This document shows positions 2,996-49,411 of a stretch of DNA of 63,013 nucleotides, in pieces; the stretch's first letter is position 1, and the number at the start of each line of letters is the position of its first letter. Source of the DNA: Synechococcales cyanobacterium. Lineage in GTDB: Bacteria > Cyanobacteriota > Cyanobacteriia > Leptolyngbyales > Leptolyngbyaceae. Under the pieces are notes generated by a model. It was not told the origin of the DNA, searched no databases, and saw only the letters and a list, made by a program, of their open reading frames with translations. Made by a program: the position numbers and the translations under genes. The DNA is taken from the NCBI GenBank assembly GCA_043787035.1, contig JAYVVL010000285.1:1-63013 (forward strand), in the 5' to 3' direction.

Positions 2996-5725
2996 CTAAT
3001 ACTTTGTCAGTTCTCCAGGCGTGACCGTATTCATCACTATTTCTGGAGTAAAGTAGCCCAAAGCTTGGATGATCCGAGCAACGCAGCCAGTCCATCCAGT
3101 TTGGTGACTGGCACCAATTCCTGCCCCGCTATCTCCGTTGAAATATTCGTAGAACAAAATCAGATCGCGCCAGTGCGGGTCGGTCTGAAACTTCTCGGCA
3201 CCTCCATAGACTGGGCGGCGACCCGATTCATCCTTGAGGAAAATGCTCACAATCCGTTCGCTGATTTGTTGGGTGACAGCAAACAGCGATAGATGTTCAC
3301 CAGACCCAGTGGGATATTCAATCGTGAAGGCATCGCCGTAGTAGCTATAGAGTTGCAGCAGCGATCGAATCAACAATAAGTTGACAGGCATCCAGATAGG
3401 GCCGCGCCAATTAGAATTGCCGCCAAACATCCCTGAAGTCGAGTCACCGGGAACATATCCGACTTTAAACTCCTGCCCTTCGTGATGGTAGTAGTAGGGG
3501 TTTTCTAAATGATGGCGAGAAAGGGAGCGAATCCCATAATCGCTGAGGAACTCGGATTCATCTAGCATTCTGGAGAGAACGCGGCGCAATTTATCTTCGT
3601 TCAAGATAGATAACATCAGCCGATTTCGCTCACCCGGTTTAATGGGTAGATGGGTGTTTTGAGTTAACTCAGGATGACGCATAATGAACAACTGTGCCCG
3701 TTCTTTGAGGCGCGGCAGCTTTTCAAAAGCTTCACGAGGGAAGACGGCAACTGCCATCAGTGACAACAAACCGACCAACGATCGCACCTTTAAGCGGGTA
3801 GAGTTGCCATTGGGCAAGCGCAGCACATCGTAGAAGAAGCCATCTTCTTCGTCCCATAGTTCGTCCTGGTGGTCACCAATCCGATCCATGGCTCCCGCAA
3901 TCCACATCGTGTGTTCAAAAAACTTAATCGCCAGGTCTTCGTAGATAGGATCGTGGAGTGCCAGCTCGATGGCAATCTGAAACATCCGCTGACTAAAGAA
4001 CGCCATCCAGGCAGTGCCGTCTGCTTGTTCCAGATGCCCCCCCGTCGGTAAAGCCGAACTGCGATCGAACACACTAATGTTATCCAATCCCAAAAATCCG
4101 CCCTGGAACAAATTGTTGCCACCTTCATCTTTGCGGTTGATCCACCAGGTGAAGTTGATCAGCAGTTTGGAGAAAGCGTATTTGAGGAATTCAGTATCTC
4201 CTACGCCGTTGTTCCGTTCGCGATCGCGGGTGTATATCTCCCAGGCAGCAAACGCATGGACGGGCGGATTCACGTCGCCAAAGTTCCATTCATAGGCAGG
4301 AATTTGACCGTTGGGATGCAGATAATCTTCCCGCAGCATCAGCAGCAGTTGATCTTTGGCAAAGTCGGGATCAATAAGACTAATCGGAATCACATGGAAC
4401 GCCAGATCCCATGCCGCATACCAAGGATATTCCCATTTATCTGGCATAGAAACGATATCGTCGTTGTACATATGAAACCAATCGCTGTTCCGCACATCCT
4501 TCCGATCGCCTGGAGATGACCAGGGAGTGACGTTGCGCTCTCGCAGCCATTGATCTACGTCATAGTAGAAGTATTGTTTCGTCCACATCATCCCGGCTAA
4601 GGCTTGCCGCATCACGTTAGCGCGATCGTGATCTGCCTGAACTGCGGGCGGAATCACCGTCGCATAAAACTCATCTGCTTCCTGAAGACGAGCCGCAAAC
4701 TGTTGGTCAAAATAAGCACCAAACGGATCACCGATCTGATCTGGAGCCTGTTTTGAAAGGCGCAATCGGATCACCTTTGTCTCTCCAGCCCCGATTGTGA
4801 TGTCGTAGTGGGGCGAAACTTTGGTGCCGACATCGCTGGGATTAACGGCATCCTGCTGTCCATGCACGATCGCGTTGTTGATGCCATCTTTGACAAAGGG
4901 ACTGGCATTCAGCGTCCCAGACAGCCGCTGATGGTTCGTTTCATTTTCTGTGAACAGCAGCGGAGCCACGCCATCGTAGTAGAAATAATAATCGCTGATG
5001 TATTGATTCAGCAAAGTGTCGTTAATGTGAGCATGGACAACACTGTTGCCAGTTCCTTCAATCTTCGTGAGTGCGGGCTTGGCTCCCCCTACCGACCAAG
5101 ACCAGGTGTTACGAAACCACAAGGTTGGCAATATATGAATCGGAGCCGCTTCGGGGCCCCGGTTGGCAATGCTGATTTGAATCAAAACATCTTCGGCATC
5201 TGCTTTGGCATATTCCACAAACACGTCGAAATAGCGATCGTCGTCAAAGATGCCTGTATCTAGCAGCTCATATTCCAGTTCATCACGATTGCGATTGCGG
5301 TTGGTTTCAACCAAATCATTATAAGGAAACTCGGCTTGGGGATATTTGTAGAGATACTTCATATACGAGTGAGTCGGCGTGCTGTCGAGGTAAAAGTAGT
5401 ACTCTTTTACATCTTCGCCGTGATTGCCTTCGCTGTTGGTCAACCCAAACAGCCGCTCTTTAATAATCGGGTCTTTGCCATTCCACAGCGCTACCGCAAA
5501 GCAGAGCAGGTTGTGGTTGTCGGTGATTCCGCCCAGTCCATCTTCGCCCCAGCGATAGGCGCGCGATCGGGCGTGATCGTGCGGGAAATAATTCCAAGCA
5601 TTCCCATCTGAGCTGTAGTCTTCGCGCACCGTTCCCCACTGGCGTTCGCTGATATACGGTCCCCATTTATACCAATCGACTTCGCCGATGCGGGTTTGTT
5701 TAAGCCGTTGCTCTTCTGCGCTCAT
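2996..5725 (-). CDS. GH63-like (MGH1-type) glycoside hydrolase / glucosidase
   Basis: 909-aa ORF. The N-terminus WYKWGPYISERQWGTVREDYSSDGNAWNYFPHDHARSRAYRWGEDGLGG and the large C-terminal (alpha/alpha)6-type region match my memory of the bacterial GH63/MGH1-like family of about 890 aa. Confidence 0.8.
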   Translation of the reverse strand: MSAEEQRLKQTRIGEVDWYKWGPYISERQWGTVREDYSSDGNAWNYFPHDHARSRAYRWGEDGLGGITDNHNLLCFAVALWNGKDPIIKERLFGLTNSEGNHGEDVKEYYFYLDSTPTHSYMKYLYKYPQAEFPYNDLVETNRNRNRDELEYELLDTGIFDDDRYFDVFVEYAKADAEDVLIQISIANRGPEAAPIHILPTLWFRNTWSWSVGGAKPALTKIEGTGNSVVHAHINDTLLNQYISDYYFYYDGVAPLLFTENETNHQRLSGTLNASPFVKDGINNAIVHGQQDAVNPSDVGTKVSPHYDITIGAGETKVIRLRLSKQAPDQIGDPFGAYFDQQFAARLQEADEFYATVIPPAVQADHDRANVMRQALAGMMWTKQYFYYDVDQWLRERNVTPWSSPGDRKDVRNSDWFHMYNDDIVSMPDKWEYPWYAAWDLAFHVIPISLIDPDFAKDQLLLMLREDYLHPNGQIPAYEWNFGDVNPPVHAFAAWEIYTRDRERNNGVGDTEFLKYAFSKLLINFTWWINRKDEGGNNLFQGGFLGLDNISVFDRSSALPTGGHLEQADGTAWMAFFSQRMFQIAIELALHDPIYEDLAIKFFEHTMWIAGAMDRIGDHQDELWDEEDGFFYDVLRLPNGNSTRLKVRSLVGLLSLMAVAVFPREAFEKLPRLKERAQLFIMRHPELTQNTHLPIKPGERNRLMLSILNEDKLRRVLSRMLDESEFLSDYGIRSLSRHHLENPYYYHHEGQEFKVGYVPGDSTSGMFGGNSNWRGPIWMPVNLLLIRSLLQLYSYYGDAFTIEYPTGSGEHLSLFAVTQQISERIVSIFLKDESGRRPVYGGAEKFQTDPHWRDLILFYEYFNGDSGAGIGASHQTGWTGCVARIIQALGYFTPEIVMNTVTPGELTKY

Positions 5726-7734: not shown

Positions 7735-8424
7735 ATGCAATCCGATCCTCAAACGGTGCCGACAAAATCTACTGCAACCATTCGCGCTTACGCAGCGATC
7801 GCTGGGACGATCGTGTGGTTAGTATTGATTCTACAGTTTTATTTGATGACAACGGTCGCGATCGACAAAGGTGTAGGAGTATGGGTGAGCACGGCTAGAT
7901 TCTTTAGCTACTTCACTATTCTAACAAACACTTTGGTGGCATTAGCCTACACGGTGCCTTTAATTCTGCCGAGAAGCCGCTGGGGTCAGTTCTTTTCTAG
8001 CGCAAACGTCAGAACCGCGATCGCCGTTTATATTGCGCTTGTTAACCTCATCTACTCGATTGCGCTCAGGAACGTTTGGAACCCGCAGGGTTGGCAACTG
8101 GTAGCGGATAGAGTTCTACACGACGTTAATCCAATCCTGTATATTGTGTTTTGGTTCCTGTTCGTTCCGAAGTCAACTGTGCAATGGCGAAATCTACCTG
8201 CTTGGCTGATTTATCCACTTGTGTATATAGTCGTCATACTAGTCCAAGGCGCAATCTTTAACTGGTATCCCTACCCGTTTTTAGAAGTGGGTAAATTCGG
8301 CTACCCGCAGGTGTTGTTAACTACAGTGATTCTGGCTGCCGGGGTTTGTGTGGCTAGTGCAGTTTTTATTGTCATTGCCCGTCTGACACAGCGCAATCGT
8401 CGGTCTAGAGAAACTGGGAGCTAA
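7735..8424 (+). CDS. Integral membrane protein (about 6 TM), family uncertain (possibly Pr6Pr/FAR-17a-like)
   Basis: 229-aa ORF starting 4 nt after the SH3b gene. It has six hydrophobic segments (e.g. FSYFTILTNTLVALAY). The family name is from memory only. Confidence 0.55.
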   Translation: MQSDPQTVPTKSTATIRAYAAIAGTIVWLVLILQFYLMTTVAIDKGVGVWVSTARFFSYFTILTNTLVALAYTVPLILPRSRWGQFFSSANVRTAIAVYIALVNLIYSIALRNVWNPQGWQLVADRVLHDVNPILYIVFWFLFVPKSTVQWRNLPAWLIYPLVYIVVILVQGAIFNWYPYPFLEVGKFGYPQVLLTTVILAAGVCVASAVFIVIARLTQRNRRSRETGS

Positions 8425-8849
8425 GTACACTGCGATTCTTGAGAGGTCAGATTTGAGACATTGCAAAACGTCGGGATAATTTGGGTATGGGCAATCCACT
8501 CGTGGTTGCCCTCTGTCAAGTTCAAAAAACATTGCTGCACTGCCCCAACTTCACGGGTAATTACCCCTCCCTCTACCAAAACGTATAGGTTGCGGGTGTT
8601 GAACAAGCCATCTCCAGACTGCTCAATGTTATAGGCACCCAGTAACGTAGTTTGACGGTTGTAGGCAAAAATCTGCCAGCGCTTTTGCTCTGGAATCTGC
8701 GTCGGCAACAACAGAACCGTAAAACATCCGACGTTGCTGAATCCAAATATGAACCACCAGATCAGCCCTCTCCCTAGGGAGAGGAACCAGAGGCGCGGTT
8801 TCCGACCCGCTTTGCGAGGAGGGCAAAGGCTAAAACGTAGCCCGAACAT
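8421..8849 (-). CDS. Hypothetical membrane-anchored protein
   Basis: 142-aa ORF with one TM (LIWWFIFGFSNVGCFTVLLL). It lies downstream of, and co-directional with, the lyase-like gene. No recognisable motif. Confidence 0.35.
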   Translation of the reverse strand: MFGLRFSLCPPRKAGRKPRLWFLSLGRGLIWWFIFGFSNVGCFTVLLLPTQIPEQKRWQIFAYNRQTTLLGAYNIEQSGDGLFNTRNLYVLVEGGVITREVGAVQQCFLNLTEGNHEWIAHTQIIPTFCNVSNLTSQESQCT

Positions 8850-8945
8850 TATCGGTTTTATTCAATTCGCAATTCCTAGGGCTTTCGCCCACTGCGATTA
8901 AATCCCATACTAATTACCAGACTCTATGCTCTTACGGCGTAATTG

Positions 8946-9851
8946 CTACCTAATTTTGTCCGAACTATTGTTGACTGAGAAGTTGGTGAAATCAACAGTG
9001 ACTTCTTTAGGAGTTGCCCACGATTGATCGCTGCCGCCAAAAAATGTTGAGAAGAAAATGCCCTCAATTTTTAGCTTTTCAGTTGTCCGAAACTGAAGGT
9101 TGCTTTGATCCAACACTTTCTTTCCGTCTAGCCAAACTTGAACGCGACCGTTTTTCTGATCAGGATTGTTCAGGTCAACCTGTTGTTCTAGATGGTGCCA
9201 AGTACCGGGTGTAAAGTACCAGTTGCCCCGTCCGATCGAGGTTCCATAATGAGAGCTGGTCGGTAAATAAGCATAAACCTCACCTTTACCGTCTCTCCGC
9301 CACATGAAGCGGGTAGAAAAGCCATTCGTGCCGTCGGGGTCATTTCCACCGCTGGTTTGAGTTCCGCCAAACAACCCTGGCAACTTTCCACCTTTAACAA
9401 AGTCAAAATCTTGAGAGAAGCGGACATAGTAGCTTAATAGCAGAGAGTCTTGGGGTGCTAAATTTAGATCTGCGTAAAATTGAACCCCGCCCAAAGGTGC
9501 GCCCGTCTTACGGTTAACTGCGGGACTAGCAGACCCTGCTGGATAGCGAACTCTCAACACTTGTGAGAATTTAGGGTCAGCAGTAATGGTTGCATTTTGC
9601 CAACCCCAATCACCTTGACTGCGAATGTGCCACTGAGATCGCCAGTCAGACCTGGAGAAATCTCCTGCCCACAGACGTTTTCTAGCAGAACGATCGCTTG
9701 CGTCGGATACTTTACCAGACTCAGAACGAGGGGATGGATCAAAGTTTTCAACGGCTACTGTTGAATTTGGTTGACTACAGCCGCTCATAATCACGGCGAA
9801 ACTTAGTAACACAAACAGCCACAGAGAAGCCTGAGCAATTATAGATTTCAC
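8946..9851 (-). CDS. Polysaccharide-lyase-like lipoprotein (concanavalin-fold, PL14/PF14099-like)
   Basis: Lipoprotein signal MKSIIAQASLWLFVLLSFAVIMSGC. The blocks FDFVKGGKLPGLFGG, GFSTRFMWRRDGKGEVYAYLP, NGRVQVWLDGKKV and IFFSTFFGG match my memory of the polysaccharide-lyase family that includes PL14 alginate/glucuronan lyases. Confidence 0.6.
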   Translation of the reverse strand: MKSIIAQASLWLFVLLSFAVIMSGCSQPNSTVAVENFDPSPRSESGKVSDASDRSARKRLWAGDFSRSDWRSQWHIRSQGDWGWQNATITADPKFSQVLRVRYPAGSASPAVNRKTGAPLGGVQFYADLNLAPQDSLLLSYYVRFSQDFDFVKGGKLPGLFGGTQTSGGNDPDGTNGFSTRFMWRRDGKGEVYAYLPTSSHYGTSIGRGNWYFTPGTWHHLEQQVDLNNPDQKNGRVQVWLDGKKVLDQSNLQFRTTEKLKIEGIFFSTFFGGSDQSWATPKEVTVDFTNFSVNNSSDKIR

Positions 9852-9989
9852 GGCTTATGCAAAGGGATAGATTTGCTGAAAGAGTTGGAGCAGAGTTAGC
9901 GATACGAGACCCTCGCCGTAACATCAGTTCGACAGAAGCCGCTGACAACGCAGCGAAAAAACTCGTCGAACTGACGTTAAATAGATTTA

Positions 9990-12164
9990 CTACTTAACAA
10001 TGTCTGCTCTGCTATTTAATTGAACATTGGCTGCATGATTCATGCCAATTTTGCTTTGATCGAAGTCATCTTCTGCCGTAACGTATTGCATCGTCACATC
10101 CCGCGATCGCTTAAGCATTGCAGGATAGCGAATGCCTTGTTCTAAGTGAATGTTGCTGACGGTTACTTGAGCAACATTGTCTAACACTAATCCATTGATT
10201 GTCTGGTTAGCGATGCCTGGGGTAGAGGGGCTGTAGCGCAACGTAAAGCCGCTAACTTGCACATCTTGAACGGGTTTTTGTGCAGTCTTTGGTGCCGATG
10301 CAGTCAGGACTGTCTGACCTACCCTTGACCCAGAAACCATCAGAATGGCGGTGTCAGCCGTTGGATTAAACTGAGCTTGTAGAATGGTTCTACCTACACC
10401 CTGTCCTTTAATTCGGATATGGCTGCGATCGATGCTGATCGGTTTGAATAAGTCAATCTCACCAATTGGCAGATTAATTTGAATGGCTTCACTTAGAGGC
10501 TGTCGATCAATTAACGCCTGTAGAGCCACTGAATCATCTTTGCCATCGCTGGGCACAATTCCCTGGTCGATTGCTTCGATCGAGTTCACGATCAGTTGTT
10601 GAGCCGCAGTCTGCTTCAGGTTTAATCCCTCTAAGTCCCACAGTGGGTTGAGTGTCCCGTTCAGCCACAAGAGGAACACTGCAAAACTCAAAACTTGGCT
10701 AGCCAGCAGAAAGCGAGAAATGCCAAGCTTTGCTAGTCGTCTTTTGCCAGTGCCTTCAGCAGAAATACTTTGGTTTCCCCGGTTTGCCCAGTTCTGTTTT
10801 GCCAAGTTCATCTGAGTCCAAATTTTGACCAACGATGAAGTCCACTGAGTCACTAGCAAAATCGGTAAATGAATCGGTTTTGGATCAGAGGGTCTACCCT
10901 GAAAAATTAGCAGCAGCATGAGTGAGCGGCTAAACAGAATCCACGAAGCAATGATGCTAGCAGCGATGAAACGTCCTTGAAGTAGGGAAAGGAGTAGGCA
11001 GCCTGGGCTGATTAGAGATGTCCAAATACTAATGCGTTGATCCAGCAACCCATACCAGAGATAGAAACCCGTTACTTTAGGTCCTAGGGCGAGCGCTCGG
11101 CTGTTGTTGCGGAGCATATTGCCATACCAGCGTCGCATATTGTCATAGGCGCGATCGACCACAGAACCCGATAGAGTCTCGATCGAGTAAACCAGCGCGT
11201 CTGGAATGTAGAGCATATCGTAACCACGACATAGCATCCAAAACCAGGTACTTTTGTCATCGCCAGAGAGAAACTTAAATTGCCCCCACAACCAATCATC
11301 CAGGCGATCGTGCTCTAGCTGGCTAGCAAAGGAGGGATGGAGCGCTGCCTCTGACTGGAACAGTGAAAATCGCCCTGTCAAACAGATTACCTTTCGAGAA
11401 AGGGAATCTGAACACATTTGCTGATGTCGTAGTGCAAACCGCATATGAAACCACTCAGAAAATAGGTAAGATCCCTGCACAACGGGCAGTTCATCAGTCG
11501 TTAACGCTCCCAAGCGAGGAAACAAACGAAAGAACGGTAAACACTGACGCAGTGTCCCAGGACTCAGTTCTGAATCACCATCCATCAAGGCAATAATGGT
11601 ATCCGAGGGCAGATTGTGCCGAGCCAACTCTTGTAATCCATCCGCCATTGCTTTGCGTTTACCCTCTTGTTGCACCATCTGAATGAGATGGATAGAGCGC
11701 AACTCCGGGTCTTCAGACTCTAACACTTGACGAATATAAGCATTCTCTTGTTCGCTACTGCTGCTAATTAGCAGCGTGATCGGTTGCGTCAGCGTTTTGG
11801 CTTCTTGAGCGATCGCTCGAAACACTCGCTCCGTAATCCAAGTCTTCTCGTGATAGGTTGGAACGAGTAAACAAACGGGAGGAAGTTGCTCGACAGCCAA
11901 GGCATTTGCTCGGAGCCGCCAGCGTGGAAAAGTCCAACTTAAGTAGATTCGGGAGCGAATACCTCGCAACAAAAAAAGGCTCCAGCGCCAAGTGCCCACA
12001 GCTCCTAAGCTAACTAGTGCAAATATATCCCAAATGGCGATCTGCTTTGAATTGTGAGATAAATACAGCGATACAAATCCGACAACAGTCATTGTCAGAC
12101 ACGCCAACCAATTAAGACGAGAACTTAGCATTTTTTGAGGGGGAGAAGCGGTTGCCGTAGACAT
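9990..12164 (-). CDS. Alg8-like processive family-2 glycosyltransferase fused to a C-terminal periplasmic right-handed beta-helix domain
   Basis: 724 aa. Residues 1-500 are collinear with Alg8 as I recall it: GAVGTWRW, LLVPTYHE, GKRKAMADG, MDGDSEL, LTTDE..SEWFHMRFALRHQQMCS, LTGRFSLF, FLSGDDKSTWF, RRWYGNMLRNNSRAL, LDQRISIWTSL. A basic loop (GKRRLAKLGISR) and a final TM precede a 223-aa tail. The tail carries DGKDDSVALQALID and IKGQGVGRTIL (pectate-lyase-3/beta-helix signature). Confidence 0.8.
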   Translation of the reverse strand: MSTATASPPQKMLSSRLNWLACLTMTVVGFVSLYLSHNSKQIAIWDIFALVSLGAVGTWRWSLFLLRGIRSRIYLSWTFPRWRLRANALAVEQLPPVCLLVPTYHEKTWITERVFRAIAQEAKTLTQPITLLISSSSEQENAYIRQVLESEDPELRSIHLIQMVQQEGKRKAMADGLQELARHNLPSDTIIALMDGDSELSPGTLRQCLPFFRLFPRLGALTTDELPVVQGSYLFSEWFHMRFALRHQQMCSDSLSRKVICLTGRFSLFQSEAALHPSFASQLEHDRLDDWLWGQFKFLSGDDKSTWFWMLCRGYDMLYIPDALVYSIETLSGSVVDRAYDNMRRWYGNMLRNNSRALALGPKVTGFYLWYGLLDQRISIWTSLISPGCLLLSLLQGRFIAASIIASWILFSRSLMLLLIFQGRPSDPKPIHLPILLVTQWTSSLVKIWTQMNLAKQNWANRGNQSISAEGTGKRRLAKLGISRFLLASQVLSFAVFLLWLNGTLNPLWDLEGLNLKQTAAQQLIVNSIEAIDQGIVPSDGKDDSVALQALIDRQPLSEAIQINLPIGEIDLFKPISIDRSHIRIKGQGVGRTILQAQFNPTADTAILMVSGSRVGQTVLTASAPKTAQKPVQDVQVSGFTLRYSPSTPGIANQTINGLVLDNVAQVTVSNIHLEQGIRYPAMLKRSRDVTMQYVTAEDDFDQSKIGMNHAANVQLNSRADIVK

Positions 12165-12354
12165 AGAACCTCACGTCTCGAAATTAAAAACCACAACATT
12201 ACTGGCTCAAACTCATACGATCGTTCATACCTGCACACGAAGATAGGCATCAACGAAACCCTAAGGATTCTGGATTAAATAACGGGGGACAACCGTCTCG
12301 GCTGTTTAAGTCAAGCAAGATGCCTGACCGATGAAGTTCTCGGAGTTATTTAAT

Positions 12355-13659
12355 TCACGATCCTAACAAACGGGTGCCTAAGGTCAATGTTGCAGACTGA
12401 CCTGCTCCACAAAATCGATGCGCTTGTGTCTGCTGCGCTGAAGGCGGAATTTTAACCGTGACTCGCGCCAGAGGTTGATTTAAAAGGTCAGCAGGAACCG
12501 CTGGAGTAATTGCTTGTAATTGTCGTTTGATGGTTTCAATGTTGCTAACAGCTTCAATCAGATCAACTTCTCCAACTAAGGTATTTGGGTCACCCACTAG
12601 TTGAACCCGCGCTGGTTGCTGGCGATCGATTCGGTTTGCCTGATCTACGCTAACTAGCGTCTCGACCCAAAGATTGTCGCAATCCAGCAGAGTCAACAGA
12701 TTACTTGAACGGCTGACCTGTTCACCTTGATCCTGCTCGGTGCGATAAATCACTCCAGCCACAGGAGCCTTAATGGCAATATCCTTACGGGAGGTGTAAG
12801 CTGCTTGAGCCTGAGCAAGAAGTTGCTTCTTACTAGCCAGTTGAGCTGTTAACGTTTTAACCAGTGTTGCTTGAGCTTGAATGGTTTGGGTTAAGCTGGC
12901 TCGCTGATTCAACAAACCATCTTCTGCTTTAAGTGCAGTCCCCTCTTTAAATACTTTTTGAGACGTTTTAGCAGAGTCCGAAATAGCGATCGCCTGAGCG
13001 ACCTCAGCTTCAGTTGACTTCCAAACGGCTTCTAATTGGTCAACCTTTTGTTTAGAGATAGCGCCTTCTGTCATTAATTGACGGTAACGTTGATAATCCA
13101 GATTGGCAGACTGGGCTTTAGCACTTGCTTCATCGACCGCTGCCTGGTAACGACGAATATTATTGCCCGCCATCTCAACATTGACCCCCTGAATCAATTT
13201 GTCTTGAGTCTCTAGATTTTCTAATTGCTGTTGCAATAGGGCTAGAGATTGCTGGTTAGCAGCCAACTGTGTGGCGGCAGAATTAGTCTCGCCTTGAAGC
13301 TGTAAAACGCTCTGCTCTTCTTGAAGAGTTGGAGCAATACGAGCCAGCACTTGCCCTGATTTAACAACCACTCCTGGCTGCGCGTAGAATGCTTTGATGG
13401 TGCCATCAATCGGCGACTGCAATCGCACAGTACGTCCGTTAATGATGCCATTATTAATAGTCAAATGAGTTAAGCGGTAGCTAATCGAGGTTAGCCCAAA
13501 CGCCACAGCGGTAGCTCCTAAAGACACTAGAGCGATCGTGAAAAATAAACGCTGCCATCGAGACTGTTTTGGGTCAGCATCAAGAGGCAGACCGATCACT
13601 TTGTCGGCATGAGATTGCTTTGCAGGAATTTCTAACATTCGTGATGTTCTCTGAGTCAA
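12355..13659 (-). CDS. HlyD-family membrane-fusion protein (Alg44-like periplasmic part, no PilZ)
   Basis: 434 aa with one TM (LFFTIALVSLGATAVAFGL). Lipoyl/barrel block INGRTVRLQSPIDGTIKAFYAQPGVVVKSGQVLARI, a long Q/A-rich coiled coil, and a second barrel half IKAPVAGVIY. Only about 40 cytoplasmic residues precede the TM. Confidence 0.85.
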   Translation of the reverse strand: MTQRTSRMLEIPAKQSHADKVIGLPLDADPKQSRWQRLFFTIALVSLGATAVAFGLTSISYRLTHLTINNGIINGRTVRLQSPIDGTIKAFYAQPGVVVKSGQVLARIAPTLQEEQSVLQLQGETNSAATQLAANQQSLALLQQQLENLETQDKLIQGVNVEMAGNNIRRYQAAVDEASAKAQSANLDYQRYRQLMTEGAISKQKVDQLEAVWKSTEAEVAQAIAISDSAKTSQKVFKEGTALKAEDGLLNQRASLTQTIQAQATLVKTLTAQLASKKQLLAQAQAAYTSRKDIAIKAPVAGVIYRTEQDQGEQVSRSSNLLTLLDCDNLWVETLVSVDQANRIDRQQPARVQLVGDPNTLVGEVDLIEAVSNIETIKRQLQAITPAVPADLLNQPLARVTVKIPPSAQQTQAHRFCGAGQSATLTLGTRLLGS

Positions 13660-14092
13660 TGAGTATCTTGAAATACAGACTTATATCAGAAGAAAAGCTG
13701 AAGTAATTTGAGTAAGATTGCTGTTGATTTAAATGGTTGAGACAAGTTTATGCGTAAAAATAACTTAATATGTAAAGCGTTTATCAACCTTCTATGAAGT
13801 AGGAATAAACATTTAACAATAGCCCGGACGTTTTTTTGAAAGGTTCCACAAGGTCTTCAGGGTATGCAGTTGAATTAGGATTTGACCCTCGAAATTTGAG
13901 CAAATTTTGTCTGGGGCATTGATGAAGGGCGATCGCCTTCTAATCAAGGTTGTGGGGTCTGAATAGCAGTCGATGCTGTTGGCTGAATGTGCTGCATGGA
14001 CTGTTTGTTCAAGGACTGGATTAAGCGATCGGATGTGGACTGATGTAAGCTGAATGCTTCTGATCATGGGTAGGGCGAACGCACACGTTTCT

Positions 14093-14371
14093 TTACAATT
14101 TGCGGGAGAGAGTAGGCACTTGAGACAAAATCTTAGTTAAATACTGATCATCCCAACCTGCTTTGAGTCATTTAGCGCGCGTGCCGCCTTTAGCAGACTT
14201 CTCTTGCGATAATAAATTCACGGCTAGATGACGAATGACCGCTAAGTTTTCTGCACAATAGCCCTGAGTTGCACGATATTGGTCTTCCCGGAACCCGACA
14301 TCCAAAATCCAATGCAGTTGATTCTCAATCCCCCAGTGACCCCATACCACAGCCGCAAACTGTACCGCATC
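14093..14371 (-). mobile_element. ISAs1-family transposase C-terminal relic
   Basis: HWGIENQLHWILDVGFREDQYRATQGYCAENLAVIRHLAVNLLSQEKSAKGGTRAK-TGA-LKAGWDDQYLTKIL. This is the conserved ISAs1 C-terminus with an in-frame TGA (14168-14170). The N-terminal roughly 300 aa are absent. The fragment begins at the vapC stop codon. Confidence 0.7.
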
Positions 14372-14746
14372 CTAAGATTTAGATTGAATTTGAACAGAAC
14401 TTAGTGTCAATTCTGTCATTTTCCCCAACTGAACATCATTGCTCAATAAATTTGAATCAAGAACGATTGCCATTGCACAAACGATTGCATCCGGTAATTT
14501 GAGACGATATTTCCGACGAATCTCAATAGTTAACTTTTTCACCTCATCGCCCAACCCCACGATCGTCACCTGCGATAGAAACTCACAAATTCTGGATTTC
14601 TCTTCTTAGCCGATCGCCGAGAAAGACAGCATCTCAATTTCACTAATAACAGACAAATAGAACTGTCCAACGGGCAAAGAGTTTACCAATCGTCCACTGA
14701 GAAGGTAGAGCGCAACATTGGTATCCAAGACGTAGCGATCGTTCAT
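14372..14746 (-). pseudogene. vapC: PIN-domain toxin VapC with one in-frame TAA
   Basis: My translation: MNDRYVLDTNVALYLLSGRLVNSLPVGQFYLSVISEIEMLSFSAIG*EEKSRICEFLSQVTIVGLGDEV...LPDAIVCAMAIVLDSNLLSNDVQL. The PIN acidic residues (DTN, SEIE, PDA) are present. The stop is at 14606-14608, in frame with ATG 14746. Confidence 0.75.
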
Positions 14747-15060
14747 CAGGCCCACTCATTTCGCATCTGAAGTTGCATTTCTAACGCATCACCTTCAAAT
14801 TGAATTACACCGCTAAAATCATTGATATCAACAATCTTAGCAACAAGAACGCTGGTCCCCCCATTTCGATTGATTACAGGTAAGCTTGTTTGCGTTCTGT
14901 CGATGACTGAATCATCTTTCTGACCTAAAAGGTTCATCCCAGCAAAAATTGCATCGATCGCATTCTCGAACTTGCCACTCTCAATCTAACTTTTTACCAA
15001 CGTTTCCAGCTCAGGTGGTAAAAAATTATCATTAGAAATATCTCCAATCTTTGTGGCCAT
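14746..15060 (-). pseudogene. Cognate antitoxin with one in-frame TAG
   Basis: MATKIGDISNDNFLPPELETLVKS*IESGKFENAIDAIFAGMNLL...FSGVIQFEGDALEMQLQMRNEWA. The stop is at 14986-14988 (probably CAG to TAG). The N-terminal LPPELE..V...IESGKF pattern resembles ParD/RHH antitoxins. Its TGA overlaps the vapC ATG (TGATG). Confidence 0.6.
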
Positions 15061-15149
15061 AAGATTACGCATAGCCTAACTCATAGGCAAATCGATCGAA
15101 TGTATATTATTGGCTGCTCGTCAGTGACTCTAACCTTCACGCCGATCGC

Positions 15150-18100
15150 TTACGGGAAATAATCCTGCAACGCTCGAACGGATAGAGGCTTCGTTTGGAT
15201 AGAGGCGATCGCGGCGGCAGTTGCTTTAGCTCCGGCGATCGTGGTGACGATCGGGATTTTGTATATTAGCGCGGAACGGCGGATGCTTTTGCCATCGGAT
15301 TGGGCATTTTCTTCGCTGGAGGGCGTGTTGATGATGAGCTGGATTTGGCCGTTTTTGATCGCATCCAAGACGTGGGGTCGGCCTTCGTGGAGCTTGAACA
15401 CCAGATCAACATCCAGGCCATGGTCTTGGAGGACTTTGCGGGTGCCTTGAGTGGCCATGATGGTGAACCCTAGGGCGATGAACTCGCGGATGACGGGGAC
15501 CACTAGCGTTTTGTCGCGATCGTTGGTGGAGACGAAGACCGTTCCGCTCTGGGGGAGGCGCTGGCTAGCTCCGATTTCGGCTTTGGCATAAGCCGCTCCA
15601 AAGGTGGTGTCGATGCCCATAACCTCGCCCGTCGATCGCATTTCTGGGCCGAGGATCATGTCGGTGCCGGGGAACTTGTCGAAGGGGAGGACCGCTTCTT
15701 TGACGGAGATGTGGGTGGGGATGATTTCTGTGGTGAAGTTGAGTTCGGCGAGGGATTTGCCCGACATGACGCGGGAGGCGATTTTCGCGAGGGGATAACC
15801 GATCGCTTTAGAAACAAAGGGCACCGTGCGTGAGGCTCGGGGATTGGCTTCTAGGATATAGACCTGATCGCCCTGAACGGCAAACTGGATATTCATTAAG
15901 CCCACGACTTTGAGCGCTTTGGCGAGTTCAACGGTCCAAGTGCGGATTTGGGCGAGGACAGGTTCAGTAAGTGAAATCGTGGGAATCGAGCAGGCTGAGT
16001 CGCCGGAGTGGATGCCCGCTTGTTCAATGTGTTCCATGATGCCGCCGATGACGACTTGGCCCGTGGTGTCCGCGATCGCATCCACATCCACTTCGATCGC
16101 GTTTTCTAAGAATTTGTCGATGAGAATCGGGTGTTCGGGTTCGATTTGGACCGCGTAAGTCATGTAGCGTTCGAGTTCTGCGTCGGAGTAGACGATTTCC
16201 ATAGCTCGGCCTCCCAGGACGTAACTCGGGCGAACAACAACGGGATACGTGACCCGTCGGGCAACCGATCGTGCTTCGGAGTAGTTGCGAGCGATGCCGT
16301 TGGGGGGCTGCTTGATGCCCAAATCGGTAAGGATTTTCTCGAAGCGTTCGCGGTCTTCGGCGGCGTCAATAGAGTCGGGTGAGGTGCCCCAGATTTTTGT
16401 CTGGACGGGGCAGTCGGGGCTGGAAAGATACTTTTGCAGCGGCAGTGCAAGTTTAAGCGGCGTTTGGCCCCCGAACTGGACGATGATGCCTTCAGGGTTT
16501 TCTGCTTCGAGAATGTTCAGCACATCTTCTTGAGTCAGCGGCTCGAAGTAAAGGCGATCGCTGGTGTCGTAATCGGTAGAGACGGTTTCGGGGTTGGAAT
16601 TGACCATGATGGTCTCGTAGCCGTCGGCCTGAAGCGCGAAGGAGGCATGGCAGCAGCAGTAGTCAAACTCGATGCCTTGACCGATTCGGTTGGGACCGCC
16701 GCCGAGGATGATGACTTTGGGTTTGCTGGAGGGTAGGACTTCGGTTTCGTCTTCGTAGGTGGAATAGTAGTACGGCGTCAAGGCTTCAAACTCGGCGGCG
16801 CAGGTATCGACGGTTTTGTACGCGGGAATAACGCCTAGGGACTTACGATAGGTACGGACTTGGGTTTCTTGGGTTTTCGTCGCAAACGCAATCTGCCGAT
16901 CGCTGAAGCCTTGGCGTTTGATCGCATACATCTGGTCCCGAGTCAGAGATGAAAGCGCCGTGCGTTTGAGATATTTTTCAGTGACGAGTAAGTCTTCAAG
17001 CTTGTCGAGGAACCACAGATCGATCGCCGTGAGTTCGTAAATTTCTTCCACACTCATGCCCATTACCATGGCTTGGTGAATGGTAAAAACCCGATCGGGA
17101 TTGGGCGTTCTTAAGTTCGCGCTGATCTGCGGCAAACTCGGCAACATCTCTTCTTTATCGCAGCCCCAGCCCGCACGACCAATTTCCAACGATCGCAACG
17201 CTTTTTGGAACGACTCTTGGAAGGTGCGACCGATCGCCATGGCTTCCCCGACGGACTTCATTTGCGTCGTGAGCGTCGCTTGGGAACCGGGAAATTTCTC
17301 AAAGGCAAACCGAGGAATTTTTGTGACAACATAATCTATAGTCGGTTCAAAGCTCGCGGGAGTCTTATGCGTGATGTCGTTAGGGATTTCGTCGAGGGTG
17401 TAGCCAACGGCCAGCTTGGCGGCGATTTTGGCGATCGGGTAGCCTGTGGCTTTGGACGCAAGAGCCGACGACCGGGACACCCGTGGATTCATCTCAATGA
17501 CGACCACTTCGCCCGTGTCCGGGTTGACGGAGAACTGGATGTTTGAGCCGCCTGTTTCGACGCCGATTTCGCGAATGATTTTGATCGACGCATCCCGAAG
17601 GCGTTGATATTCTTTATCCGTAAGGGTTTGCGCCGGGGCCACCGTAATGGAGTCGCCCGTGTGAATGCCCATGGGATCGAAGTTCTCAATGGTGCAAATA
17701 ATTACGACGTTATCCGCCAAGTCCCGCATGACTTCGAGTTCATACTCCTTCCAGCCGATCAGCGACTTTTCCACCAGAATCTGCGACGTGGGGCTAGCGT
17801 CGAGTCCCGTCTGGGCGATCGCTTCAAATTCTTCTTGGTTGTAGGCAATTCCGCCACCGGATCCGCCCATGGTGAAGCCGGGTCGAATAATCAGCGGGAA
17901 CGACCCGATCTCGCGGCTCACGACTCGGGCTTCGTCGATCGTATTCGCTAAGCCCGACGGACAAACGCCCACGCCGATGCGCTCCATGGCTTCTTTGAAC
18001 AATTTGCGATCTTCTGCCATTTCAATAGCAGGCAACTTCGCGCCGATCAGTTCCACGTTATAACGATCGAGCGTGCCGTTTTTCGCTAAGGCCACGGCCA

Positions 18101-21127: not shown

Positions 21128-22129
21128 CTAAGCTTTGCCCCCGTGACGCTTTAAATGCCATGTCCAGGCATGGGTCAAGATAGCCGTGAGGTCCGCGTAC
21201 TGAGGATCCCAGCCGAGGATTTGTCTGGCCCGATCGCCGCTGCCCACCAGAGCGGGTGGATCGCCTGCGCGCCGAGGTTTTTCCTCAGCTTTAATCTCCC
21301 GTCCGGTGACGATACGTGCGGTCTCGATGACTTCTTTGACAGAGAAGCCGCTGCCGTTGCCTAAGTTGAAGCGATCGCTCTTCCCACCTTGGAGCAAATA
21401 TTCCAGCCCTAGGAGATGAGCCGCCGCCAAATCCATCACGTGAATATAATCCCGAACGCAGGTGCCATCCGGCGTGTCGTAGTCGGCTCCTAAAATTGAG
21501 ACAGACTCTTGCTGACCTAGGGCCGTGAAGAGGACCAGCGGGATTAAGTGCGTTTCAGGCTGATGGTCTTCGCCTAAGCGACCTTGGGGATCGGCTCCGG
21601 CGGCGTTGAAGTAGCGGAAGGCCACCGATCGAATCCCATAGGCCGGATCAAAGTCGGCCAAAATCCGCTCGACCATCAGCTTGGTCGCTCCGTAGGGATT
21701 GATTGGGTTTTGGGGATGGTCTTCGGGAATCGGGACGATCGTCGGGACGCCGTAAGTAGCGCAAGTGGAGGAGAAGACAAAGTTCTTTATTCCTGCGTGG
21801 TTCATGGCTTCGAGCAGCGTTAGAGTTCCAACGACGTTGTTGCGATAGTACTTGTCTGGTGCAGTTACGGATTCACCGACGTAGGCATAGGCTGCAAAGT
21901 GCATCACGGCATCGAACTGATGGATCTCGAACAACCGATCGAGGAAGGCGCGATCGTTGGTATCGCCCACAACAAGTTCGACCTTGAGGACAGATTCTAC
22001 GAGATCCGAATGGCCATAGACGAGGTTGTCGAGCACCACCACGTCGTAGCCCGCGTCTTTGAGAGCCAATACAGTGTGGGATCCGATGTAACCTGCTCCG
22101 CCTGTGACGAGAATTTTTGCTTTTTGCAT
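21128..22129 (-). CDS. galE: UDP-glucose 4-epimerase
   Basis: 333 aa with GGAGYIGSH NAD-binding motif, the YGATK catalytic Y-x3-K and an extended-SDR C-terminus. Confidence 0.9.
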   Translation of the reverse strand: MQKAKILVTGGAGYIGSHTVLALKDAGYDVVVLDNLVYGHSDLVESVLKVELVVGDTNDRAFLDRLFEIHQFDAVMHFAAYAYVGESVTAPDKYYRNNVVGTLTLLEAMNHAGIKNFVFSSTCATYGVPTIVPIPEDHPQNPINPYGATKLMVERILADFDPAYGIRSVAFRYFNAAGADPQGRLGEDHQPETHLIPLVLFTALGQQESVSILGADYDTPDGTCVRDYIHVMDLAAAHLLGLEYLLQGGKSDRFNLGNGSGFSVKEVIETARIVTGREIKAEEKPRRAGDPPALVGSGDRARQILGWDPQYADLTAILTHAWTWHLKRHGGKA

Positions 22130-39902: not shown

Positions 39903-40466
39903 ATGGTCCAAACCCCGCTCAAACCGTTAACCCTTGATGCATTTCTGGCCATGCCTGAGACCAAACCTGCCAGCGAATTCGTTGACAATCAAATCACCCA
40001 GAAACCCATGCCCCAAGGAAAACACAGTACGGTTCAAGGGGATTTAGGTTCAGCGGTAAATGCGGTTTTCAAACTCAAACGGATTGCCCGAGCTTATCCA
40101 GAATTGCGCTGTACGTTTGGTGAGCGTTCCATCGTACCCGATTTGGCAATATTCAAATGGGAACGCATTCCACGGGATCCGGATGGGAGTGTTGCAAACG
40201 CCTTTAAGCTAGCACCGGACTGGACTGTTGAAATCCTATCGCCGGACCAAAGCCAAACAAAAGTGGTTCGTAATATTTTGCATTGTCTTGAAAACGGGAC
40301 TGAAATGGGCTGGTTGATTGATCCTGAAGAGCGATCGGTGTTTGTTTATTTTGCCGATCGCCCTGTTGCTATTTTTGAACAGCCGTTTGCGCAGATTCCA
40401 GTGCCAAAATTTGCTGAGGCATTTGAGTTGACGGTGGGGGAATTGTTTGGCTGGTTAGATGGTTAG
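39903..40466 (+). CDS. Uma2-family endonuclease
   Basis: 187 aa: GKHSTVQGDLGSAV, VPDLAIF, EILSPDQSQTKV (PD-(D/E)xK-like), GWLIDPEERSVFVY. Confidence 0.85.
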   Translation: MVQTPLKPLTLDAFLAMPETKPASEFVDNQITQKPMPQGKHSTVQGDLGSAVNAVFKLKRIARAYPELRCTFGERSIVPDLAIFKWERIPRDPDGSVANAFKLAPDWTVEILSPDQSQTKVVRNILHCLENGTEMGWLIDPEERSVFVYFADRPVAIFEQPFAQIPVPKFAEAFELTVGELFGWLDG

Positions 40467-46729: not shown

Positions 46730-46963
46730 GAAATCAGGGTGCATCTACCAGTCCACTCTTCCTGATAAAATGGGGAAGTCAGGAGAAAAAGTGTGTTGTG
46801 ATGATGAAGACTGTCCTAATCTTTGCAAAGTTTTCTTGAACTCGATCGATCGATTTAAGCTAGATCGAAGTGAGTCACGCCTAACCTTTATGGATACAAC
46901 TACGATAGGCTATGACTATTGGGCATCCAGCTTGGACATCAGCTCGGCAGCGAAAGAGGAATC

Positions 46964-49411
46964 GTGACTCAAGAATTTATACTCTCCGTAACCCCTGTTC
47001 AGGATGACAAGTACCTGATTCAGACTGTTCACGATCGGATGTCGTCCGGCGTCCCGGTCGCGGAGGAAATCGTGACGTGGCGGGTCGATGCCTGGATTCG
47101 CCAAGCAGCGGCGCTAATGAACGATCCATTGGTGGGATTGCTGCGAAGTTCTAGCGCCCCCGACGTCTTCAACGATGGGCCGATACCCGATGCCGTCAGC
47201 CTAAGTGCGCTCGGTCAACAGCTTTACAATGCGTTGTTTCAAGGGAGCATTCGAGATAGCTGGATCGCCGCCCAAGGCATTGCCCAAAACCAGCAAGATA
47301 TTCTCCGTCTGCGTCTTGGCCTCAAGGACGATCGCACCATTCGACTGCCCTGGGAAGTGCTGAATGCAGGCTCTAGGCCGCTCTCGACCGGGACCGATGT
47401 TGTCTTTTCTCGGTTTCATGCGGGACAAATGACGCCTTGCTTTTCCAGTGGAACAATAGGACAACCCCTGCGAATTTTGATGGTGCTGTCTGCGCCGACG
47501 GATCAAGATCGTCTACAACTTCATGAGGAAGCTCAACATCTTCAGCATGAGCTAGGTCATGACCTAGCGTCCCCCAACGCCCCAGAAATCGAACTCACGC
47601 TTCTCGAACAACCGGGCCGCGAACAGCTCACCCAATCCCTCGAACAGGGAAATTACGATATTTTGCACTATGCAGGCCATAGCGGCTGGGGCGCAGCGGG
47701 AGGAGACCTCTATCTTGTCAATCGCCGAACGGGACTTACAGAGCCGCTGAGTGGGGAAGACCTAGCGGGGCTGCTGGTCAATAATGGCGTCCGGATGGCT
47801 GTATTTAACTCCTGCCGGGGCGTGCGCGCTGCGACTATTGAGTCTACGGGGGCACTGGACAATTTGGCGGATGCACTGCTACGGCGGGGAGTTCCAGCGA
47901 TTTTGGCGATGGCTGAGCGGATTCCGGATGATGTGGCGTTGATTTTGAGTCGGTTGTTTTATCGCAATTTGAAGCAAGGCTATTCTATAGATCTTAGTCT
48001 CAACCGAGCGCGGCAGGGGTTGCTGTCGTCCTATGGCTCGAACCAGTTGTACTGGGCGTTGCCGATTTTGTATTTGCATCCTGATTTTGATGGCTATCTT
48101 CATGTCGCAGCGGGGCAGACGGCGACGGGGCAAAATGTGATTGATCCGATCGCAATGCTCGATCCGGATGCGCTTAATCCTATTTTGATGGATTTAGACC
48201 AATTGCCGATGGACGACTTTGAGGGATTACTCGATCCGTCGGTCGATCCGGATTATGACGACGATCGGGCGGCGATTTCGGACCTGATGAAGACGCTTGA
48301 TCCGACGAGTTTTGCGCCGTCTGAACCCCGTACAGCGCCCGTGTCTCCAGTGGACGATCTGCTAAAACTAGGGCAAAGGCTTCAGTCTAGCGGCGACCTC
48401 ACGGGGGCTATTGATGCCTACGGTCAGGCGCTAAAACTGGATGGCAACAGCGCTATTGTTTATGACGCTCTCGGAACCGCCTTTCAGCAGTATGGAAATC
48501 TTCCCGAGGCGCTCTCGTCCTACCGCATGGCTTCTCAACTGGACCCAAGCCTCCAAAGCGCTGACGACCATGTGCGATCGATGCTTCAGGGCAACACCCA
48601 CGGCGAAGCGACCTCAACCCCCTCGAATGCGGCAAACTTTGGGGCAAATCCATACCGAAAGCGTGCGCCCTGGAAAAAACCAGCGTCGATCGCTGTGGTC
48701 GCCTTGGCTGCTGTGGCTCTAGGCGTTGCTGCCGCCAGCCTTCTGGGAAAATCAATGAATCCGGGTCAGCAGTCTTTAGAAAGTCAGACGTCTAGTCAGG
48801 GCAAATCGGGGACCGGAGTCTTGATGACCATCGCGACCCAAGGCTTTGCTAAAGGCAACGTGCGCAAAAGTCAGGAGGCGATCGAATCTCTGATGGACAA
48901 TGGCAACTTAGTGGAAGCCCAAACGGCCCTCGAAAGCGCCACTGTGGCCCAAAAGGAAATTGCACCAATAGCCTATCTCCAAGGTCGTCTCTCATGGCAA
49001 TTTGCCCAAAAAGATGAAGCGACCCACAGCTTCCAAGATGCCCGTCGATTCTTCGCGATCGCCACCCAAAAAAATCCCAACTCACCCGCATTTCAAAATG
49101 CCCTCGGGTTTGCGTACTACACCGAAAACGACATCCCCCGCGCCACCGACGCCTGGACCCAGGCCCAAACCCTCACCCAAAAAGAGCCGACTCTAGAGAC
49201 CGCCACTGCCGACGCCGGACTCGCGCTCAACTACTGGCAAGCAGCTCGCAAAGGCGGCAAAGACTCACCCCGACTCAAGGCAGAAGCGGTCAAACTTCGC
49301 GATCGCGCCCTCAAAACCCGACCGTCTGATTTTACTGACGCCGCCCTCAGCAAAAATTGGCTCTGGACCCTCAAAATGATCGCGGACTGGAAACAAGTGC
49401 GATCGCTTTAG
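46964..49411 (+). CDS. Membrane-anchored CHAT-domain (caspase-like) protein with TPR repeats
   Basis: GTG 46964 is preceded by aagagga. CHAT dyad context ILHYAGHSGW and MAVFNSCRG. Cytoplasmic TPR (GDLTGAIDAYGQALKLDGN...), a TM ASIAVVALAAVALGVAAASLL and a C-terminal TPR-like ectodomain. Confidence 0.85.
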   Translation: MTQEFILSVTPVQDDKYLIQTVHDRMSSGVPVAEEIVTWRVDAWIRQAAALMNDPLVGLLRSSSAPDVFNDGPIPDAVSLSALGQQLYNALFQGSIRDSWIAAQGIAQNQQDILRLRLGLKDDRTIRLPWEVLNAGSRPLSTGTDVVFSRFHAGQMTPCFSSGTIGQPLRILMVLSAPTDQDRLQLHEEAQHLQHELGHDLASPNAPEIELTLLEQPGREQLTQSLEQGNYDILHYAGHSGWGAAGGDLYLVNRRTGLTEPLSGEDLAGLLVNNGVRMAVFNSCRGVRAATIESTGALDNLADALLRRGVPAILAMAERIPDDVALILSRLFYRNLKQGYSIDLSLNRARQGLLSSYGSNQLYWALPILYLHPDFDGYLHVAAGQTATGQNVIDPIAMLDPDALNPILMDLDQLPMDDFEGLLDPSVDPDYDDDRAAISDLMKTLDPTSFAPSEPRTAPVSPVDDLLKLGQRLQSSGDLTGAIDAYGQALKLDGNSAIVYDALGTAFQQYGNLPEALSSYRMASQLDPSLQSADDHVRSMLQGNTHGEATSTPSNAANFGANPYRKRAPWKKPASIAVVALAAVALGVAAASLLGKSMNPGQQSLESQTSSQGKSGTGVLMTIATQGFAKGNVRKSQEAIESLMDNGNLVEAQTALESATVAQKEIAPIAYLQGRLSWQFAQKDEATHSFQDARRFFAIATQKNPNSPAFQNALGFAYYTENDIPRATDAWTQAQTLTQKEPTLETATADAGLALNYWQAARKGGKDSPRLKAEAVKLRDRALKTRPSDFTDAALSKNWLWTLKMIADWKQVRSL

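Follow-up and report, generated by a model that had tools for sequence, protein, structure and literature searches.

The 63,013-nucleotide stretch of DNA from a filamentous cyanobacterium analyzed here (the window; contig JAYVVL010000285.1 of the Synechococcales assembly GCA_043787035.1) contains three consecutive open reading frames (ORFs) on its minus strand, which we interpret below as a candidate system for the synthesis of a secreted polyuronate. In coding order they correspond to an HlyD/EmrA-type adaptor (12355–13659, 434 aa), a glycosyltransferase of family 2 (GT2) related to Alg8 (9990–12164, 724 aa) and a lipoprotein lyase of family PL14 (8946–9851, 301 aa). An earlier interpretation made from the letters of the DNA (the sequence-only reading) had described at this site an HlyD-type gene followed by a GT2 gene and a lipoprotein gene; its coordinates are exact, and the Pfam families found agree with it. 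The adaptor and GT2 genes are separated by 190 bp (12165–12354, minus strand) and the GT2 and PL14 genes by 138 bp (9852–9989, minus strand); the coding strand of neither spacer shows a terminator-like site. One promoter-like match (12387–12360) overlaps the 3′ end of the adaptor gene; when the region was scanned for promoters and terminators, promoter-like and other matches were no more numerous than in shuffled sequence. An Rfam search of nucleotides 8000–15400 at E ≤ 1 gave no match, and hence no cyclic di-GMP (c-di-GMP) riboswitch upstream of the genes.

The GT2 protein matches the Pfam family Glyco_tranf_2_3 (E = 6e-31). As a reference we used the Alg8 protein of Pseudomonas aeruginosa, P0438, which was found with an Alg8-like sequence serving purely as bait; all Alg8 comparisons were made against real retrieved proteins (P0438 and others named mannuronan synthase or Alg8), never against the bait. 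The contig encoding P0438 shows the gene order algD-alg8-alg44-algK-algE-algG-algX-algL-algI, and Alg8 itself, the GT2-type mannuronan synthase, corresponds to KEGG K19290. BLASTP aligned residues 53–462 of the window GT2 colinearly with residues 45–455 of P0438 (410 residues, 35% identity, 55% positives, 7 gaps, E = 5e-82). The alignment includes the blocks GAVG.WR, GKR, DGD, LTT[ND]E, SEW..RFA.RH..MCS, TGR.S.F, GDDKS.WF, RWYGN.LR.N.RAL and DQR.S.WTSL, that is, every block on which the sequence-only reading had based its view of the N-terminal part as Alg8-like. It equates D188/D190 and D295-D296-K297 of Alg8 with D195/D197 and D302-D303-K304 of the window protein, the RW pair being R345-W346. 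Among 87 cyanobacterial homologues D195, D197, D302-K304 and W346 do not vary, and R345 is retained in 90% or more. Remminghorst et al. are said to have found, in 2009, that catalytic-motif residues are essential in Alg8. Mutation of its predicted catalytic residues abolishes synthesis (PMC3815931).

The synthase core (residues 1–505; 10650–12164, minus strand) is predicted to comprise two N-terminal transmembrane (TM) helices, a cytoplasmic GT-A domain and then interface and TM helices, and carries the motifs DGD (195–197), TTDE (222–225), GDDKS (301–305) and RRW (344–346). Its AlphaFold2 model (pLDDT, the per-residue model confidence, 82.9) has hyaluronan, cellulose and chitin synthases as top Foldseek matches, at 12–15% identity; as modeled, the core is a processive synthase fold. 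As the protein aligns colinearly with Alg8, whereas the PgaC and NodC models reach best scores of just 22–26 bits and a phmmer search of the Protein Data Bank (PDB) gave no BcsA, hyaluronan synthase or chitin synthase match, we classify it as a processive membrane synthase belonging specifically to the Alg8 family, and not to the cellulose, chitin or hyaluronan synthases, as had been anticipated. The family is tight, since an exhaustive search of 1.84 billion cluster representatives returned only 481 matches at E ≤ 0.001. The closest relatives come from Leptolyngbya, Stenomitos and Phormidium-like genomes. Pfam and NCBIfam scans of the GT2 detected neither a PilZ domain nor any other recognized c-di-GMP module, an unrecognized site still being possible.

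Beyond residue 505 the synthase carries a C-terminal domain that the sequence-only reading overlooked. Residues 506–724 (9993–10649, minus strand; about 220 aa) are modeled as a linker helix and, after it, a short right-handed parallel beta-helix (pLDDT 87.6), with weak matches to PF12708 and TIGR03805. Foldseek relates this domain to carbohydrate-active beta-helix proteins, namely 4mxn, the alginate epimerase/lyase 8ja4 (TMq 0.61), AlgE4, the RbmB lyase and phage tailspikes. Taking into account that the loop preceding the last TM segment (485–503) is rich in Lys and Arg and that the stretch following it is acidic, a positive-inside pattern, the domain is predicted to be periplasmic. An AlgG/AlgE-type epimerase was considered and rejected: BLASTP against AlgG gave E = 2.6, meaning no similarity, and residues 505–724 contain neither a conserved His nor a DPH(D/E) motif across 87 homologues, so that the domain is probably not an epimerase of this type. 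It may instead act as a polymer-binding guide or as a processing module. Other Alg8-family proteins (P0125, P0130, P0126 and others; 880–960 aa) have a much longer C-terminal extension, the start of which weakly matches PF12708. Since such proteins are many, tethered periplasmic domains on Alg8-type synthases seem to be widespread outside Pseudomonas.

The third protein begins with a signal peptide and a lipobox, IMSGC, indicating a lipoprotein, and matches Polysacc_lyase_14 (PF21294) with 231.8 bits (cut-off 27; E = 1e-68), in agreement with its earlier placement among PL14-like lyases. In the PDB it matches the polymannuronate (polyM) lyase AkAly30 (5gmt, E = 1e-32) and the glucuronan lyase vAL-1 (3a0n, E = 6e-6). 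All its catalytic residues are intact, K156, S179, R181, Y193 and Y195 corresponding to K99, S126, R128, Y140 and Y142 of AkAly30, and the catalytic motifs were found in 55 out of 55 cyanobacterial neighbors. Roles for these residues of AkAly30 were reportedly established by Qin et al. in 2017. The numbering offset of AkAly30 was checked against the positions of C115 and C124, whose disulfide loop tunes that enzyme towards polyM (PMC8618178). Because such lyases cleave at uronic acids, and an intact PL14 protein is tied to the synthase, a uronate-containing product is implied. The position of the lyase beside the synthase suggests a role in biosynthetic housekeeping.

The adaptor matches HlyD_3 (63.4 bits, cut-off 22.2; E = 3.7e-17) and HlyD_D23 (48.5 bits, cut-off 30; E = 8e-13) in Pfam, and the EmrA/EmrK and DevB subfamilies of NCBIfam below cut-off; among proteins of known structure, EmrA (PDB 4tko, E = 1e-7) is the closest to it in sequence. 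It consists of about 37 cytoplasmic residues, a single N-terminal TM segment (38–56), a long Pro-poor helical region (residues ~106–300) and lipoyl/beta-barrel domains. It had been called Alg44-like, a label that does not hold. Real Alg44 matches PilZ and three Alg44-specific Pfam families (PF25964, PF25891 and PF25965), whereas the adaptor showed no PilZ match at E ≤ 0.1 and matched none of the three, and BLASTP against Alg44 gave E = 0.11, that is, no similarity. An Alg44 identity is thereby ruled out, and by its domain content the adaptor is classified as HlyD/EmrA-type, a family other than Alg44, devoid of the PilZ c-di-GMP receptor through which the alginate and cellulose systems are controlled. 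With Alg44 it shares a single-TM inner-membrane anchor, a membrane-fusion-type periplasmic part and a gene beside the synthase, and it holds Alg44's position and probably its bridging role. A regular-expression search located an RLS motif at residue 191 (R191-x3-L195-x6-S202; 'RYRQLMTEGAIS'; 13054–13089, minus strand), placed in the helical hairpin region, and in an alignment of 65 members of the adaptor family the surrounding columns keep the pattern Y(E/Q)R(Y/F)xxLxxxGA(V/I)S. In MacA, AcrA and HlyD this motif binds the tip of the TolC alpha-barrel (PMC3391258).

We then asked how far the three genes travel together. In a scan with one genome per species, 568 genomes contained a relative, and the best 79 loci were analyzed. 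Clustering of their ORFs showed three families, and no more, to be conserved: the GT2 in 79 loci, the adaptor in 76 and PL14 in 53. After these, the commonest family occurs in 14 of the 79 loci and an ABC-type family in 7, and no ABC, MFS or RND transporter partner is conserved in the loci. The expected synteny in other cyanobacteria was borne out. The adaptor gene lies upstream of the GT2 gene and on the same strand in 67 out of 67 cyanobacterial loci with enough flank, and PL14 lies within the locus in 51 out of 66, abutting the 3′ end of the GT2 gene in 40 of these 66 (12 co-oriented, as in the window, and 28 convergent). That GT2 and PL14 remain neighbors through inversion speaks for a functional connection between them rather than for operon hitch-hiking. 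A 2.7-kb metagenomic contig also encodes, as a single ORF of 777 aa (P0123; L084:259-2592), a GT2 core 58% identical to that of the window with a C-terminal PL14 domain where the beta-helix domain would be; this fusion was seen once, and an assembly chimera is possible. If genuine, it ties the lyase to the synthase and is consistent with the C-terminus of the GT2 being periplasmic, as the domain fused there is elsewhere a lipoprotein.

Extended versions of the locus occur in a basal group of cyanobacteria (Floridaenema, Elainella, a Phormidium and pleurocapsalean genomes), whose GT2 proteins are 46–60% identical to that of the window. Their gene order is adaptor, AlgD-like GDP-mannose dehydrogenase, GT2 with beta-helix domain, large beta-helix protein of the AlgE epimerase type (one or two genes) and PL14 (L055:5849-16623, L068, L057, L051, L047 and L058). 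The dehydrogenases show 43–46% identity to AlgD of P. aeruginosa versus 25–29% to Ugd of Escherichia coli. The large beta-helix proteins match the A-module of the mannuronan C5-epimerases AlgE4/AlgE6 (E = 4e-40) and carry the YGxDPHE motif. The extended locus is apparently an undescribed cyanobacterial alginate gene cluster. In a neighbor-joining tree, computed without support values, the AlgD/AlgE-linked loci form a basal cyanobacterial grade within which the clade of the three-gene loci (the trio clade), including the window, is nested; PL14 proteins of the basal and trio clades are 56–59% identical, inside the trio clade's own range. The most economical interpretation of these sequences would be to regard the trio as an alginate-type locus that has been reduced; its product would still be a polymer of mannuronate, with no epimerase gene linked to the locus any longer.

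Relatives outside the cyanobacteria show related arrangements. In Verrucomicrobia (L075:2610-14152, L076 and L078) the GT2 is accompanied by a PilZ-less HlyD adaptor, an AlgD-like dehydrogenase, a NosD/beta-helix protein and a 1250–1700-aa member of the PL6 (chondroitinase B) family with BACON domains. In L077 and L078 the verrucomicrobial cluster contains, or is flanked by, a LuxR-type response regulator. A roseobacter plasmid combines a dehydrogenase 47% identical to AlgD with a GT2, a nucleotidyltransferase and a NosD protein. At L080, a more distant Alg8-family locus, the partner gene at the equivalent position encodes PilZ plus HlyD_3, the architecture of Alg44.

Among the closest known systems is alginate synthesis in Pseudomonas and Azotobacter (algD-alg8-alg44-algK-algE-algG-algX-algL-algIJF-algA). 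In both cases the polymerase belongs to the Alg8 family, is encoded beside an inner-membrane adaptor and is accompanied by a periplasmic polyuronate lyase, and the basal cyanobacterial relatives add the AlgD-like dehydrogenase. Several differences are, however, evident. The cyanobacterial adaptor lacks PilZ and any similarity to Alg44; the window lyase is a PL14 protein (beta-jelly roll) and AlgL a PL5 protein; the window synthase has its extra periplasmic beta-helix domain, and precursor genes are unlinked. Among the window ORFs scanned there is no AlgK, AlgE, AlgG, AlgX, AlgI/J/F, BcsC-type or TolC-type gene, and none of these is conserved in the related loci either. The same scan contained no sugar-nucleotide dehydrogenase, porin or acetylation gene, as the sequence-only reading had noted. 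The Azotobacter AlgE proteins, extracellular mannuronan C5-epimerases, have their YGxDPHE homologues directly downstream of the basal-clade GT2; none is found in the window or the trio clade, and the beta-helix of the GT2 itself lacks the motif.

Two systems that make neutral glucans resemble the trio in another respect. In the BgsA/BgsB/TolC system for mixed-linkage beta-glucan of Sinorhizobium meliloti and in the XcsA/XcsB/XcsC cellulose system of Thermosynechococcus, a GT2 is combined with an HlyD-type protein and export through TolC is proposed (PMC13438883). As in the window, a processive GT2 is paired with an adjacent HlyD-type adaptor, and the order bgsBA is likewise adaptor followed by synthase. 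Their synthases are, however, BcsA/CrdS-like and carry c-di-GMP-binding domains, whereas the window synthase is of the Alg8 family, has a beta-helix domain but no PilZ domain and is accompanied by a polyuronate lyase. With the characterized PL14 lyases (AkAly30 of Aplysia, HdAly of abalone and vAL-1 of Chlorella virus) the window protein shares the Pfam family and an identical catalytic Lys/Ser/Arg/Tyr/Tyr constellation; those enzymes are digestive, or are viral and degrade cell walls, whereas the window PL14 protein is a lipoprotein of a bacterium, has a synthase gene next to its own and lacks the disulfide loop of AkAly30.

Taken as a whole, the evidence points, with a probability that we place somewhat above even, to a system that makes a secreted polyuronate by a synthase-dependent route; the polymer is most probably an unepimerized, non-acetylated beta-1,4-polymannuronate. 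Like Alg8, the GT2 would convert GDP-mannuronate into beta-1,4-polymannuronate, as the AlgD- and AlgE-like genes linked to its basal relatives indirectly suggest. It would polymerize the chain from the nucleotide-uronic acid at the cytoplasmic face and thread it through its own membrane channel, the presumed GDP-mannuronate being supplied by a dehydrogenase encoded elsewhere. The chain would emerge beside the tethered periplasmic beta-helix domain. The adaptor would surround the exit and use its RLS-bearing hairpin tip to dock onto an outer-membrane channel of the TolC type, likewise encoded elsewhere, so that export would be tripartite, as proposed for BgsA/BgsB/TolC and the Thermosynechococcus cellulose system, and not through AlgK/AlgE. 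A TolC-dependent route is favored because of the RLS motif of the adaptor and of the precedent set by those two systems. The PL14 lipoprotein would act in the periplasm in an AlgL-like manner, clearing or trimming polymer that escapes the conduit. As neither the GT2 nor the adaptor has a PilZ domain and no riboswitch is found upstream, control by c-di-GMP, if any, would not be of a known kind.

Several observations weigh against assigning the trio to polymannuronate synthesis. The window ORFs scanned include no gene for GDP-mannose dehydrogenase, GDP-mannose pyrophosphorylase or TolC, and none of these three lies within 10 kb of the GT2 gene in any trio-clade locus; as the window and the trio-clade flanks thus lack precursor genes, the donor sugar is extrapolated from relatives that are only 46–53% identical. 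When a cyanobacterial AlgD-like protein was used as query, no trio-clade organism appeared among the best 120 of about 8000 matches, a result that carries no weight either way. As PL14 is missing from 15 of the 66 cyanobacterial loci and frequently faces the GT2 gene in convergent orientation, the two are not always co-transcribed. The aligned PL14 segment TSGGNDPDGTNGF is cysteine-free, meaning that the Cys115-Cys124 loop of AkAly30 is missing; the family also holds beta-1,4-glucuronan lyases, and with the loop gone the substrate may be polyM or glucuronan. The nesting of the trio clade comes from a tree of the kind described above.

Some of these points would be accommodated if the same machinery used UDP-glucuronate or another nucleotide-uronate and made beta-1,4-glucuronan or a mixed polyuronate, with the PL14 protein as a vAL-1-like glucuronan lyase. 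The vAL-1 match, the glucuronan lyases within PL14 and the missing polyM-specificity loop fit such a product, as do the loss in the trio clade of linkage to algD- and algE-type genes and the annotation of Ugd in a related Stenomitos genome. We regard it as a real alternative but a less probable one, because every relative with a linked dehydrogenase has one of the AlgD type, never of the Ugd type, because in the basal cyanobacterial clade GT2 and PL14 genes of these families are linked to genes for mannuronan epimerases of the AlgE type, and because the best structural relative of the PL14 protein by sequence is a polyM lyase, with an E value of 1e-32.

The adaptor could also be a mere neighbor of the GT2 and serve in efflux or type I secretion, exporting for instance the lyase or an epimerase, as happens with the AlgE enzymes of Azotobacter. 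The adaptor is closest to EmrA/DevB-type adaptors, and the RLS motif is typical of efflux and type I secretion adaptors. This is, however, very improbable: no ABC, MFS or RND gene is conserved, an ABC-type family being found in 7 loci as opposed to 76 for the adaptor; the adaptor–GT2 adjacency is without exception in the assessable cyanobacterial loci and reaches the Verrucomicrobia; the PL14 protein has its own lipoprotein signal peptide; and at L080 the equivalent position is occupied by a protein of Alg44 architecture. We give still less credence to a PL14 enzyme of nutritional or defensive function, directed against foreign alginate or glucuronan, next to a GT2 making an unrelated neutral polymer. 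Its convergent orientation in 28 of the 40 adjacent loci and its absence from 15 of the 66 would suit such an enzyme, but the GT2–PL14 adjacency is kept whatever the strand and a natural single-ORF fusion of the two exists; moreover, the GT2 falls in the Alg8 family and not with BcsA, hyaluronan synthase (HAS), chitin synthase (Chs), PgaC or NodC, and its basal-clade counterpart co-occurs with AlgD-like and AlgE-like genes.

The trio is surrounded by an ordinary cyanobacterial chromosome, encoding MutS, a GH63-like hydrolase, CarB, RodZ, GalE and phycobilisome-lyase HEAT repeats. GalE, the UDP-glucose 4-epimerase (21128–22129, minus strand; TIGR01179, 448 bits versus a cut-off of 262), has no other sugar-nucleotide enzyme beside it among those found in the window; its gene does not adjoin the module, nor is it conserved near the module in other loci. 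A short ORF directly downstream of the PL14 gene, orf142 (8421–8849, minus strand, 142 aa), was considered as a fourth component and discarded; with no family match and no counterpart in any of the 79 related loci, it probably does not belong to the module. The hydrolase is a 909-aa MGH1-like/GH63-type glycoside hydrolase, mannosylglycerate-hydrolase-like (2996–5725, minus strand), 3 kb downstream of the PL14 gene, and is not one of the conserved families of the related loci. In the 1.5 kb that separate carB from the adaptor gene there is gene debris (14168–14937, minus strand): a PIN-domain (VapC-like) gene split into two ORFs (14606–14755 and 14372–14569; Pfam PIN, E = 4e-5 on the C-terminal piece) and a 60-aa fragment (14168–14350) that by its appearance may be a transposase C-terminus, yet has no Pfam match. 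A CHAT-TPR protein (830 aa, 46919–49411) and a Uma2-family putative restriction endonuclease (39903–40466) are of types common in cyanobacteria and are unrelated to the module.

Phylum-wide and single-genome surveys list Alg8/BcsA-like matches and HlyD-only 'Alg44-like' matches in cyanobacteria and see 'no clear synthase-dependent pathways' there; the sequence-only reading had rightly stated that homologues of both proteins were noted in surveys, and in the accessible literature these are listed as matches only. In the openly accessible literature searched, no description was found of the adaptor–Alg8–PL14 module, of its beta-helix domain, of the AlgD/AlgE-linked cyanobacterial version or of the GT2–PL14 fusion. 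The proposal of a minimal three-gene alginate or polyuronate system stands in part: the Alg8-type synthase and the PL14 lyase are there, but the adaptor is not Alg44-like, and the trio appears as a derived form of a larger locus, an evolutionary context with AlgD- and AlgE-like genes that had been overlooked.

More broadly, filamentous cyanobacteria may possess an unrecognized, phylum-wide mannuronan/alginate pathway in which an Alg8-type synthase, a PilZ-less adaptor and a shared TolC replace Alg44, AlgK and AlgE. The ancestral form would include AlgD- and AlgE-type genes, and the window trio would be a reduced form making pure polymannuronate, with no recognizable c-di-GMP-binding domain. 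We advance this wider view tentatively, at a probability that we put somewhat below even. The module, conserved across many genera, nonetheless provides a concrete synthase-dependent candidate for a phylum in which surveys see no clear one, and it offers testable predictions: a polyuronate product, probably of mannuronate, export through the adaptor and TolC, and a built-in lyase. If our interpretation is correct, the known range of alginate-type polymers would come to include a major group of phototrophs, one whose members build biocrusts, mats and sheaths, and Alg8-type synthases would work without the PilZ domain of Alg44, without AlgK and without AlgE. The three genes would then represent a cassette for engineering mannuronan production, and the GT2–PL14 fusion, together with the tethered beta-helix, would reflect a general design in which polymer-processing modules are carried on the periplasmic C-terminus of the synthase.

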